DNA of 64,000 bases from assembly GCA_026770705.1 (NCBI GenBank), contig JANJGN010000121.1, positions 1,054,001 to 1,118,000 of the forward strand. The letters run 5' to 3'. Origin of the DNA: Isurus oxyrinchus. Taxonomy: Eukaryota. The translations under genes and the position numbers were made by a program. The notes beneath the pieces are model-generated. The model made no database searches and was not told where the DNA came from. It was given only the letters and a program-made list of their open reading frames with translations. Shown piece by piece: positions 38,212 to 43,323 of the stretch; within the stretch, counting starts at the first letter, position 1; each line of letters starts with the position of its first letter.

Positions 38212-38460
38212 TCAGTTTTTCTGAAACCTGATCTGTGCGTATTCCGTGTCCTCGCTCCTGTGCACAGTCCTGTCACCGCCGGGCAGCTTTGAAAAGTTGA
38301 TGTTGGCGTAGAGAAGCTCGTGAGGGTTGTCTGAGTTCCCATGTCCAACATCGCCTCCCACTGGACCTTCAGAGAGATCCCGGGGAGCTGGGGTCTCCCC
38401 CTCACTAGTTGTGTCTCTGGTTGTGTTCTGGGGCTCAGTAATCAGCACGTTCTGTTTACC
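38212..38460 (-). CDS. Gene B distal terminal exon: ITIM (LLYANI) plus ITSM (TEYAQI)
   Basis: 249 bp from phase-0 acceptor at 38461; GKQNV...HELLYANINF...EDTEYAQIRFQKN*. Confidence 0.9.
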   Translation of the reverse strand, partial: GKQNVLITEPQNTTRDTTSEGETPAPRDLSEGPVGGDVGHGNSDNPHELLYANINFSKLPGGDRTVHRSEDTEYAQIRFQKN

Positions 38461-38579
38461 CTACAGAGAAATGGAAACAGAAGGCATCCTCACATCATTT
38501 ACTGGCACTGATAGGGTTAAATTCTTGTGCAGACTTGTTTAATTCTCTCTCTCCTATCGGATAAAAGGCAGCACCTATG

Positions 38580-38720
38580 GCAGTGCAGCACTCCCTCAGT
38601 ACTGACCCTCCAACAGTGCAGCACTCCCTCAGTGCTGACCCTCCGACAATACAGCGCTCCCTCAGTACTGACCCTCTGTCAGTGCAGCACTCCTTCAGTA
38701 CTGACCCGCTGTCAGTCCCC
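38580..38720 (+). repeat. 33-bp minisatellite (longer paralogous array at 41545-41925)
   Basis: Tandem units at equivalent positions of the duplicated tail modules. Confidence 0.85.
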
Positions 38721-38855
38721 CACTCCCCCGGTAATGGCTCTGGTGAGTGACGGCTTGGATTCTGCACTCAGGTGCCTGGTGTGAGGCTCAATAACATGAA
38801 CCTTGTAATCAGAGAGAGGATGAGAGAGAGAGATAGAGGAGGGATAGAGACAGAG

Positions 38856-39788
38856 TGTTATTAATCTATTAATGTTTGTATTATAAATGCAAACTGTCTT
38901 TTTAAACAGAGGTTTAGTCTGTGTGTGTGTCTGTGTGTATTTAAATTGGATTAAAGACAGCCAGTCTGGGTGCTTTGATGTATAGTAGTTTTGAGATGTA
39001 AACAAAGAGGTAAAGTGGTAATTTGCATTTTTAAATAAAACATTCAAAGTCTGAGAGTGAAATCTTAAACCAATCAACGTTTATATTACTAATAAAATTG
39101 ATACGATGAAAGGGGATTTATTATTGGAAGAGATGGAGTTCAAAGGTCCTGATGATACATTGCGAATTTACCTTCAAACAGAAGCCATAAGACCATAAGA
39201 CATAGGAGGAGAAATTAGACCATTCGGTCCATCGAGTCTGCTCCACCATTCATACATGGCTGATATGTTTCACAAACCCCATTCTCCCACCTTCTCTCCT
39301 AACCATTGATCCCTTTACCAATCAAGAGCCCATCAATCTCCATCTTCTTCACACTCAAGAGCTGGGTATAACTTGTGCAGTTTTGTGTGTGCAGAGCAGA
39401 GGCTTGTAACAGCAAAGCAGCTGTAATCCTACACCTGTCTGCAAAGGAACCAAAGTGAAAGGAACCTCATTTGGAATTTGTGAGGTGAAAATGCTTTGCC
39501 TAGTGTCTGCTTAAAGTCTATGGGTTGTCTTGGAGGAGATTAGTTTGAGAATTTGTTATAAAGTTATGATAATACTAGTTTGTAGCCATGTGCATATGTT
39601 TAACTTGTGAAAATTAATAAATGTCTCATTTAGATTGATATAAAATCATCTTGAGAACTGGTGGTCTTATTCCTGAATTTAGAGCTGCATCTCAAACATT
39701 TCACTGGGAAATATAGGTTACGACAGCTGTTTAAAGTTTCCCTCTGGGATTTTAAACAACAGCCTTTACCAGTTGTTGTGTCATAACA
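38856..39788 (+). mobile_element. LTR-like element in the tail intron (3' part also at 42075-42383)
   Basis: TGTTATT...CATAACA termini, internal AATAAA, nested CR1 tail at ~39185-39355. Confidence 0.5.
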
Positions 39789-39923
39789 GAGAGACAGCAT
39801 GATACTGAACCATTGCTGACTCCACAGGTACAAATCAGTGGGTAACTGGGCTGGGAATCTGGGACATGTGTTGTCTACACACTGAGATTGAAGCTTTGGA
39901 GTGAGTGTAAACAGCTCCTGTAC

Positions 39924-40005
39924 CTGGTGCTTCACAGAGAGTGAACTGGGGGTCAATGCAATGTCACTGGTCCCTGAAACTCTCTCCTCCATCGCTGTCT
40001 TTCTC
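39924..40005 (-). CDS. Gene B distal juxtamembrane cytoplasmic exon
   Basis: 82-bp phase 2-0 exon RKTAMEERVSGTSDIALTPSSLSVKHQ; splice sites intact. Confidence 0.85.
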
Positions 40006-41152
40006 CTGCAATAACAAAATATCACACTGTGGTTATCATATAGCAGAGAGTCAGTGCAGCACAGACACAGAGCCCACTGTAACCTTACACCAATGACTGG
40101 ACTCTCTCTTTAAATCACCTCTGCACAAAGCACAGAATCAAGACGCTCGACACCATCCAGGACAAAGCAGCCCGATTGATCGACACCCCATCCACCACGT
40201 TAAACATTCACTCCCTCCACCACGAACACACAGTGGCAGCAGTGTGTGTACCATCTACAAGATGCACTGCAGCAACTCAGCAAGGCTCCTTCAACAGCAC
40301 CTTCCAAATACGCGACCTCTACCATCTAGAAGGACAAGGACAGCAGACACATGGGAACACCACCACCTGGAAGTTCCCCTCCAAGTCACTCACCATCCTG
40401 ACTTGGAAATATATCTCCATTCCTTCACTGTCGCTGGGTCAAACTCCTGGAACTCCCTCTCTAACAGCACTGTGGGTGTACCTACACCACATGGACTGCA
40501 GCGGGTGAAGAAGGCAGCTCACCACCACCTTCTCAAGGGCAGTTAGAGATTGGCATCAATGCGGACATCACCAGTGACAGCCACATTCGATGTAAGAATT
40601 AAAAATCTCACAGCTCAATGTATTTATTGTGAGACTGCTGCACACACGCCCTGTCGAAGGAACCTCTGTGGTTCCATTGTTAATCGAAGCAGATCAGAGT
40701 TACTGCAACAACTTGCATTTATATAGCACCTTCAATGTAGCAAAATGTCCCAAGGCTCATCCGGGGATTGTTAGTCACATTTCACCTGACTCTGAGGCAC
40801 ATGAGGAGATATTAGGGACAGGAGACCAACAGCTGAGTCAACAAAGTCAGTCATTAACGGGCATCTTAAAGGAGGAGCTGGAGATAGAGAATGAGAGACT
40901 GACACAGAAAGAAAGAGAGAGACAGAGAGGAAGAGAGAGAGAGAGAGAGAGACAGTGAATCTCGCTCCCCAATGGCTCAGCATCCAGTCCTCTCTGGAGA
41001 AGCATTTCATTCCAAACCACACCAACCGCAGCCCAATTCCATCCCTTCCTCCCTCTCTCCCCCTGTCCCCCAGTGGGTTGTTTCCTGTTCCCAGGAATCT
41101 CAATCCCTACCTGCACACCCACATCTCCTCACTCCCACTCCCCATTTCTCAT

Positions 41153-41401
41153 TCAGTTATGCTCAAACCTGATCTGTGCGTATTCCGTCTCCTCTTCCCT
41201 GTGGACAGACCCATCACCACTGGACACCCTCAAAACTTGGGGATTGGCGTAGAGAAACTCTTCAGGTTTGCCAGGGTTCCCATGTCCAACATCGCCTCCC
41301 ACTGGACCTTCAGAGAGACCCCGGGGAGCTGGGGTCTCCCCCTCGCTAGTTGTGTCTCTGGTTGTGTTCCGGGCCTCAGTAATCAGCACGTTCTGTTTAC
41401 C
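41153..41401 (-). CDS. Gene B proximal terminal exon: degenerate ITIM (FLYANP) plus ITSM (TEYAQI)
   Basis: 249 bp, phase 0; GKQNV...EEFLYANPQV...EETEYAQIRFEHN*; AATAAA on minus strand at 40628-40623. Confidence 0.9.
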   Translation of the reverse strand, partial: GKQNVLITEARNTTRDTTSEGETPAPRGLSEGPVGGDVGHGNPGKPEEFLYANPQVLRVSSGDGSVHREEETEYAQIRFEHN

Positions 41402-42518
41402 CTACAGAGAAATGGAAACAGAAGACATCCTCACATTATTTACTGGCACTGATAGGGTAAAATTATTGTGCAGCTTCGTTAATGTCAGTCGTGTCTCAGT
41501 GGGTTTAACTCTCTCTCCCATGTCTTATGAAAGAAACCACCTATGGCAGTGCAGTGCTCCCTCAGGACTGAGCCTCCAACAGTGCAGCACATCCTCAATA
41601 GTGACCCTCTGTCAGTCTCGCACTCCCTCAGTACTGACCCTCTGTCAGTCTCGCACTCCCTCAGTACTGACCCTCCGACAGCACAGCAAAAACCTCAGTA
41701 CTGACCCTCTGACAGTGCAGCGCTCCCTCAGTACTGACCCTCCGACAGTGCAGTGCTCCCTCTGTACTGACCCTCCGATGGTGCAGCGCTCCCTCAGTAC
41801 TGACCCTCCAACAGTGCCGCGCTTCCTCAGTACTGACCCTCCGACAGTGCCGCGCTTCCTCAGTACTGACCCTCCGACAGTGCAGCACTCCCTCAGTACT
41901 GACCCGCTGTCAGTCTCGCACTCCCTCGGTAATGGCTCTGGTGAGTGACGGCTTGGATTCTTCACTCAAGTTTCTGGTGTGAAGCTCATTAACATGAACC
42001 TTGTAATCAGAGAGAGGATGAGAGAGAGAGAAAGAGAGAGAAAGAAAGGGAGGTTGAGATAGAGAGAGAGACTGGAATTTGTGAGGTGAAAATGCCTGGA
42101 ATCTGCTTAAAGACTATGGGTTGTCTTAGAGGAGATTAGTTTGAGAATTTGTTAAAAAGTTATGATAATACTAGTTTGTAGCCATGTGCATATGTTTAAC
42201 TTGTGAAAATTAATAAATGTCTCATTTAGTTTGATATAAACCCATCTCGAGAACTGGTGGTATTATTCCTGAATTTAAAGCTGCATCTCACACATTCCAT
42301 GGGAAATATAGGTTATGACAGTTGTTTAAAGTTTCCCTCTGGGATTTTAAACAACAGCCTTTACCAGTTGCTGTGTCATAACAGAGAGACAGCATGATAC
42401 TGAACCATTGCTGACTCCACGGGTACAAATCAGTGGGTAACTGGGCAGGGAATCTGGGACATGTGTTGTCTACACACTGAGATTGAAGCTTTGGAGTGAG
42501 TGTAAACAGCTCCTGTAC

Positions 42519-42600
42519 CTGGTGTTTCACAGAGAGTGGACTGGGGGTCAATGCAATGTCTCTGGTCCCTGAAACTCTCTCCTCCATCGCTGTCTTTCTC
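42519..42600 (-). CDS. Gene B proximal juxtamembrane cytoplasmic exon
   Basis: 82-bp phase 2-0 exon RKTAMEERVSGTRDIALTPSPLSVKHQ. Confidence 0.9.
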
Positions 42601-43323
42601 CTGAAATAACACAATATCACACTGTGGTTATCACATAGCAGAGAGTCAGTGCAGCACAGACACAGAGCCCACTGAAACCTTACACCGACAACTGGACTGT
42701 CTCTTTAAATCAATTCTGCACAAAGCACAGAATCAAGACGCTCGACACCATCCAGGACAAAGCAGCCCGATTGATCGACACCCCATCCACCACATTAAAC
42801 ATTCACTCCCTCCACCACGAACACACAGTGGCAGCAGTGTGTGTACCATCTACAAGATGCACTGCAGCAACTCAGCAAGGCTCCTTCAACAGCACCTTCC
42901 AAACCCACGACCTGTACCATCTAGAAGGACAAGGGCAGCAGACATATGGGAACACCACCACCTGGAAGTTCCCCTCCAAGTCACTCACCATCCTGACTTG
43001 GAAATATATCACCGTTCCTTCACTGTCGCTGGGTCAAAATCCTGGAACTCCCTCTCTAACAGCACTGTGGGTGTACCTACACCACATGGACTGCAGCGGG
43101 TCAAGAAGGCAGCTCACCACCTCATTCTCAAGGGGCAATTAGGGAATGGGCAATTAGTATTGGCCACGCCAGTGACAGTCACATTTGATGAAAGAATTTA
43201 AAATCTCACAGCTCAGGATGAAGCCACTCAGCCCATCGTGCCTGTGCTGGCCCTTTGTAAAAACTGTCCAATTAATCGTAAACAAATGTTTATATTAAAA
43301 TCAAGTTAAATCTTCAGACTTAC

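Follow-up and report, generated by a model that had tools for sequence, protein, structure and literature searches.

We describe a gene for a Siglec-like receptor on the minus strand of a 64,000-nucleotide (nt) stretch of the Isurus oxyrinchus genome (assembly GCA_026770705.1, contig JANJGN010000121.1, positions 1,054,001 to 1,118,000; hereafter the window), in which two copies of a cytoplasmic tail module lie behind a single transmembrane (TM) exon. We consider it likely, with a probability of roughly three in four, that the gene makes one 216-residue tail with four tyrosine motifs. In this reading the proximal copy serves as an internal, frame-neutral module, is joined by splicing to the distal copy and is predicted to provide further docking sites.

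Organization of the receptor gene

The leader exon lies 2.6 kb outside the window (L161, window-scale 66618-66579) and is followed by three V-set exons (V1, 61811..62188; V2, 58185..58553; V3, 54634..55002), five further immunoglobulin (Ig) exons of C2 type (53821-53525, 48983-48702, 47797-47516, 45645-45370 and 44635-44342; all open, phase 1-1), and a 97-nt TM exon (43324..43420) that ends in phase 2. The proximal tail module begins with an 82-nt exon (42519..42600, phase 2 to 0), followed by a motif exon that, when read as internal, spans 41169..41401 (233 nt, phase 0 to 2) and codes for FLYANP and TEYAQI. A splice donor, CAG/GTTTGA (41163..41171, intron start 41168), is situated directly after TEYAQI, and the codons beyond it (FEHN and a stop, 41153..41168) are translated only if this donor is ignored. 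The proximal module also contains an AATAAA (40623..40628) inherited from a terminal YANP module, close to a duplication junction near 40617. The distal module has its own 82-nt exon (39924..40005), and the coding part of the last exon (38212..38460) encodes LLYANI and TEYAQI; the position equivalent to the donor reads CAG/GTTTCA, with C at +5, and AATAAA signals are present behind the exon at 37135 and 37053. Joined together, the leader, three V-set, five further Ig, TM, and stacked tail exons form a single open frame of 1109 residues.

Pfam V-set and Ig_CD22 matches are present in all three V exons and a C2-set_2 match in the single C2 exon tested (the first, 53821-53525), and a Pfam search of both tail exons returned no match. 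In a search of PDB with V2 the top 17 matches are all Siglecs, the best solved relatives being Siglec-5, Siglec-7, MAG, Siglec-8 and CD33 with scores within 7 bits of one another. The F-strand arginine that is essential in Siglecs is kept in V2 (aligned to Siglec-5) and in V3, and is replaced by threonine in V1, which is the outermost V domain if all three V exons are spliced in. Three cysteines of Siglec-5 have aligned counterparts in the V2 sequence, which we take to be the defining Siglec cysteine pattern. With a Siglec-type V-set, C2-set, TM segment and tail, the predicted product is a Siglec-like/MAG-like receptor; the closest named proteins are from white shark and basking shark, next whale shark, zebra shark and catshark, and some of these relatives are named 'MAG-like' in RefSeq.

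The gene is composed of repeated modules in every part. The V-set region (54577-62245, minus strand) has its three tandem V exons in 3.5-kb duplicated units, and basking shark RefSeq models contain up to 7-8 V domains. A pair of C2-type exons (47516-48983, minus strand) is also duplicated, flanks included, the copies being 91% alike.

The duplicated tail module

The two 82-nt exons (42600-42519 and 40005-39924) are identical at 79/82 positions with three differences, and the two 249-nt open frames to the stop codon (41401-41153 and 38460-38212) at 214/249, with only four of the 35 differences in the first 120 nt and 31 in the last 129 nt. The introns were duplicated with the exons (39472-40617 and 42073-43215, 94% identity), an AG acceptor precedes every one of these exons, the TM exon included, GT donors follow the TM and 82-nt exons, and either module by itself is in frame with the TM exon. 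A reading of this DNA made earlier from the sequence only had described two collinear copies of 82- and 249-nt exons behind one TM exon, both in phase with it, with FLYANP and TEYAQI in the proximal copy, LLYANI and TEYAQI in the distal one, and differences clustered around the first motif, and the coordinates, phases, motifs and clustering are all confirmed here. It had also called both 249-nt exons terminal; the open frames are real, but the proximal one holds the donor at 41169/41168, so that its terminal status is a matter of interpretation.

When the donor is used, the module comprises 82 + 233 = 315 nt and has phase 2 at both ends, so that it is a multiple of three, and joining the proximal module to the distal one in frame gives the four-motif tail. 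Equal phases, a length of 315 nt and homologous introns together identify it as a symmetric exon module. Other joints are less accommodating: splicing both 82-nt exons in succession, or the TM exon straight to a motif exon, shifts the frame, and joining the proximal donor to the distal motif exon does likewise, with a stop 6 residues on (no such joint is listed in the RNA contigs, which drop rare forms). An assembly artefact with two haplotypes placed in tandem, raised as a possible objection by the sequence-only reading, is ruled out, as the same module order recurs in 16/100 other genes and in RefSeq models of two other species.

An internal donor tracks the internal position

The association between the donor and a following module was surveyed in the ~10 kb downstream of 100 of the 226 TM exons matched in the genome, all on contigs C52 and C71. 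A GT with G at +5, which in the window gene sits 233 nt into the motif exon, is present in 36/37 internal and 0/98 last motif exons. Three classes are apparent: internal YANP exons (GT, +5 G in 36/37), last YANI exons (GT, with +5 C in 68/69 and A in one), and last YANP exons (no GT, 29/29). Forty further YANP exons were then taken from contigs other than those surveyed, and in 16/16 of those bearing the donor another module follows at a distance of 1.15-1.21 kb, matching the 37/37 internal-class exons of the survey, all of which have another module behind them; among those lacking the donor, 22/24 have no downstream module. The family copies share ancestry, such that these counts represent one or few events rather than many trials, and the donor association shows one consistent design, not many independent events. 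Reading frames are open in 37/37 internal modules, with the first tyrosine kept in 37/37 and the second in 36/37.

The two exceptions among the donor-less exons, L206 (G000:C121:539400-542000) and L207 (G000:C150:646050-648650), are YANP exons that lack the usual AATAAA and have the next module 1.3 kb on. They represent a second, separate duplication for which alternative last exons would be the only use.

RNA contigs and RefSeq models

The RNA evidence consists solely of assembled contigs, which cannot show RNA ends, and the junction contigs are informative at the level of the family, none being assignable to the paralogue in the window. Joints are seen between the TM exon and the 82-nt exon (43323/42599), and between the 82-nt exon and motif exons of either type. 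Contigs leave the proximal exon at 41168 in three of four runs (X1, X4 and X5, representing three studies and two organisms), and the loose letters beyond 41168 in these runs correspond to the start of the 82-nt exon; record 19 of run X5 covers both the YANP-specific part and the onward join. Run X7 has a single contig on the proximal exon, of YANI type. Both module types are transcribed at the family level. At this level a proximal-type exon and the next 82-nt exon are found joined to each other, which is not expected of mutually exclusive last exons.

Other contigs extend past the proximal stop. In runs X1 and X4 these have terminal-YANP letters at 10 of the 14 sites checked, the other four not being diagnostic, and a contig gap over the proximal stop in run X1 (41123-41156) is not counted as evidence. 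Record 19 of run X3 and record 29 of run X4 cross the AATAAA uncut, indicating that intron-containing sequence is present in these libraries. Among the 15 of 370 joints that are listed for the repeat-crowded 7.9 kb, neither 41169/40005 nor 43323/40005 is included, which has no bearing on skipping.

RefSeq models join modules at the same donor in white shark (for example XP_041037215.1, XP_041037234.1 and XP_041037157.1) and basking shark (XP_078389744.1). For a white shark gene with two modules, none of the six listed isoforms (X1-X6) ends at the proximal stop; in isoform X3 this donor is paired with a different acceptor, and the resulting frameshift gives a YANP-only tail, and in isoforms X4 and X5 the proximal module is skipped so that only the distal one is included.

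Tyrosine motifs and predicted signalling

The immunoreceptor tyrosine-based inhibitory motif (ITIM) consensus is cited as (V/I/L/S)-x-Y-x-x-(L/V) and that of the tyrosine-based switch motif of immunoreceptors (ITSM) as T-x-Y-x-x-(V/I) (PMC10906256). By the consensus as quoted there, TEYAQI in both modules is an ITSM, and neither first motif is a strict ITIM, LLYANI having I and FLYANP having P at +3. The ITSM residues are well conserved in internal modules (T 35/37, Y 36/37, I 37/37). Wider ITIM definitions admit I at +3, and LLYANI is ITIM-like at best; the distal ITIM-plus-ITSM pair proposed from the sequence is thus upheld for its second motif and falls short at +3 of its first.

The SH2 consensus of Grb2 is given as pYxNx and that of CrkII as pYxx(P/L) (PMC10279719; also PMC4841779). 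As simple consensus matches, N at +2 of the first motif is present in 133/133 exons scored (Grb2), and P at +3 in 37/37 internal and 22/28 terminal YANP exons (CrkII), so that YANI and YANP both fit the quoted Grb2 consensus and YANP additionally that of CrkII. The loss of an ITIM may accordingly be viewed as the gain of an adaptor site. Each TEYAQI would bind SHP-1/2, and relative to a single tail the stacked one is predicted to engage SH2 proteins in greater number and variety.

Weighing onward splicing against other readings

Onward splicing of the proximal module accounts for the donor, the phases, the contigs and the RefSeq models, but a number of observations count against it. The onward-splice contigs are not tied to this paralogue, the sequencing runs were taken as RNA by guess (GT-AG exon joints are present in them), and the RefSeq models are predictions that were judged without their read support. 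The GTTTGA variant in the window is a minority form, found in 7/37 internal exons, and all family donors match just 6/9 consensus letters. The proximal-type stop is retained in 37/37 internal modules and the AATAAA in 30/37 of the survey and 15/16 out of sample, and record 17 of run X5 (40970-41083), which lies past the stop, has internal-class letters at both sites covered; this may represent a short form or unspliced RNA. L206 and L207 (2/24 donor-less exons) have a downstream module and cannot stack via the donor, and a further internal module, L176, has a stop at the first tyrosine. The ratio of nonsynonymous to synonymous differences (pN/pS) over the motif exon is ~1 (internal 1.09), with no overall sign of purifying selection, and the added docking of the stacked tail is a prediction. 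Selection on stacking is not supported by pN/pS near 1, although the motif residues are almost invariant.

An unlikely alternative, but the one that survives best, is that the proximal motif exon is a composite exon with a switch like that of IgM, either splicing on to give the long tail or being polyadenylated after its own stop to give a short tail with YANP and ITSM, in a regulated ratio. The layout is that of a composite terminal exon, with a donor within the exon and a stop and polyadenylation (polyA) signal behind it, and the retained stop and AATAAA, the middling strength of the donor and record 17 of run X5 all conform to such a switch; among the intronic polyadenylation events of human immune cells and tissues, those with composite terminal exons are cited as the more numerous class (PMC5928244). 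However, the duplication junction replaces all sequence from ~8 nt past the AATAAA, and the two records that cross the AATAAA uncut show that intron-containing sequence is to be expected in the libraries. No selection on the proximal stop is seen, the 10 nt through it varying about as much as the distal intron (2/10 versus 25/108 variable sites), and the white shark isoforms listed offer none that ends there. Apparent decay of the AATAAA in internal modules (30/37, versus 29/29 in terminal YANP modules) was considered and discarded, since the out-of-sample counts are 15/16 versus 20/22. A short form ending at the proximal stop is possible.

The sequence-only reading had proposed that the two modules are mutually exclusive last exons, such that the choice between them swaps an ITIM tail for one without an ITIM. 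Each module alone is indeed in frame, the proximal module is left out of white shark isoforms X4 and X5, X3 has a YANP-only tail, and the second module of L206 and L207, whose upstream module is donor-less, would be reached only by skipping. As the main mode this choice is not borne out and we regard it as very improbable: the proximal type splices onward in three studies, RefSeq joins the modules, and the donor tracks the internal position. Moreover, three or four near-identical YANP modules are sensible as stacked units but hardly as alternative ends, and the skipping isoforms could stem from reads of single-module paralogues, the 82-nt exons being 96% alike. A choice between long and short tails by skipping the proximal module may exist, and differs from the proposed swap.

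It is just as improbable that stacked tails are a tolerated by-product of exon duplication, spliced and translated but with a copy number that has no selected role, as might be suggested by the tandemly copied V and C2 exons of the same gene, pN/pS of ~1, the 68/100 genes with a single module and the broken copies L141, L154, L155 and L176, because the arrangement is shared by three lamniform genomes, and the motif residues are nearly invariant amid varying neighbour codons with frames open in all internal modules.

Origin of the internal module

Homology between internal and terminal YANP modules extends over the entire 3' untranslated region and ends ~8 nt past the AATAAA, where a copy of the TM intron begins. 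All 37 internal modules align through the same junction (near 40617), whereas the 29/29 terminal YANP modules align only to ~40600, and this shared junction points to one founding duplication. Onward splicing could have arisen when a crossover, probably unequal, placed a copy of a YANP-type last-exon module ahead of another module, with the junction replacing everything downstream of the polyA signal; the GT donor with +5 G after TEYAQI would then let splicing run on, and later crossovers would add or remove modules.

The YANI and YANP classes differ at ~0.33 positions per site at nt 150-215 and at 0.04-0.07 in the 5' half. The clustering of differences in the window is thus a class dimorphism, suggestive of long-standing tail types whose 5' halves have been homogenised. 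In a tree of 88 motif blocks (110 columns, no outgroup) the YANI/YANP split is recovered with support of 100/100, and internal modules are not separated from terminal YANP modules (3-4 changes), which fits exchange between them. The sequence-only reading had regarded FLYANP as a lost ITIM; the hydrophobic residue at +3 is indeed replaced by P, but this is not a local loss, as YANP is a tail type of the family that ends 29/98 last exons.

The stacked arrangement is common to three lamniform genomes. A repeated tail was found in none of 23 more distant proteins (P0052-P0074), nor in the whale shark protein, and among outgroup tails the closest resemble YANI or YASI. Within the searches made, YANP and stacking look lamniform-specific.

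Size and architecture of the family

The TM-exon pattern has 226 matches in the genome and a control pattern has none, and the distal motif exon has at least 150 matches with 85-100% identity. Human Siglecs number roughly fifteen, and the TM-exon matches, some of which are perhaps allelic, are far above this. Of the 100 genes surveyed, 31 have extra modules and 68 have one. The single-module genes have YANI only (53) or YANP only (15). The others comprise 16 with YANP then YANI (one of them truncated at a contig end), 9 with YANP then YANP, 4 with two YANP then YANP, 1 with two YANP and a YANI exon that lacks its 82-nt partner, and 1 with three YANP and more; in one gene no tail was found. Four long arrays have three, three, three and four YANP modules ahead of a YANI module, one of these being a survey gene on C71, so that genes have from one to five modules and 2-10 tyrosines.

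Partners at least 99.5% identical are present for 16/101 loci, so the family counts may be somewhat inflated, with some loci perhaps allelic; the window locus has no partner aligning over at least 4 kb in one piece among 100 loci. Contig ends lie within ~20 kb of multi-module arrays on C121, C189, C323, C646, C724, C838 and C1184, and such arrays may cause breaks in the assembly and enter the counts repeatedly. Damaged tails are present at L121, L141, L143, L154, L155 and L176, the types of damage being the lack of any tail in the 9.8 kb behind a TM exon, frameshifts, a motif exon standing alone and stops at the first tyrosine. Nearly all listed copies are on small contigs; L200 (G000:C2:177207150-177209750) is a lone terminal YANP exon on a 243-Mb contig.

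Relationship to known systems

Taken one by one, a Siglec-like architecture, the duplication of symmetric exons and composite exons are all known. L-/S-MAG (Siglec-4) is also a Siglec with a cytoplasmic tail that, as may be the case here, is varied by splicing. The S-MAG form is produced through a small exon with a stop codon, in a gene present as a single copy, whereas in the shark family duplicated modules add in frame and most variation is between paralogues. The growth of a tail by tandem duplication of frame-neutral exons is a general principle, in which a symmetric-phase unit is copied with its introns; what sets the shark unit apart is that it once served as a last exon, carries signalling motifs and still has the stop and polyA signal of its earlier position.

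The CD33-related Siglecs (Siglec-3, -5, -7 and -9) are described as having an ITIM and ITSM tail (PMC10906256), and the shark gene resembles them in its V-set match, C2 domains and a two-tyrosine tail ending in T-x-Y-x-x-I, as well as in belonging to a fast-evolving multigene family, as reported for them (PMC13358205). In contrast, the shark genes repeat the two-tyrosine unit 1-5 times by exon-pair duplication, the window gene has three V domains, the TM-exon matches are far more numerous, and the first motif has I or P rather than L/V at +3. Composite exons of the IGHM type, as described in PMC5928244, likewise have a donor within an exon, with a stop and AATAAA behind it, but in the shark gene the sequence downstream of the polyA signal is replaced and the predicted outcome is tail length rather than a secreted or membrane form. 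The p130Cas/NEDD9 scaffolds, in the account of PMC10279719, likewise have several YxxP in a row, as do long shark tails with up to four YANP; in the shark this is a receptor tail with motifs 105 residues apart that alternate with ITSMs, and the resemblance is one of motif only.

We found no paper on stacked Siglec tails in searches on shark Siglecs and duplicated ITIM tails, which miss most subscription journals, and the joined proteins are already in RefSeq as automatic models. From the still readable junction it can be seen how a last exon is able to turn into a signalling unit that is internal and can be repeated. The family provides a natural series of near-identical receptors that differ in tyrosine number (2, 4, 6, 8 or 10) and in the first motif, which is of two kinds, and with it the effect of motif number on inhibitory signalling is directly testable; stacking, if used, would allow the signal to be set by tail length and make-up. 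More speculatively, and doubtful at present, the ~200 lamniform genes could constitute a germline combinatorial Siglec repertoire, in which 1-5 modules (2-10 tyrosines) act as a signalling dial, SHP-binding ITSMs and Grb2/Crk-type YANP motifs together make a multivalent scaffold of an inhibitory receptor tail, and the stop and polyA signal left over in each internal module provide an IgM-like switch of tail length within a cell.

Neighbouring Siglec-like sequences

A second Siglec-like paralogue is present in the window on the plus strand (3234-9530), with a leader-like exon whose ATG is apparently lost, followed by V, C2 and C2 exons; no TM exon match lies downstream of it within the window, and it is possibly truncated. 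On the minus strand, a leader and V exon at 26518-27670 belong to another Siglec-like class, and the match to P0014 breaks off at 26518, short of the domain's end. A further TM exon, ~70% alike and of another class, is located 30 kb beyond the window (L163, window-scale 93972-94070, minus strand).

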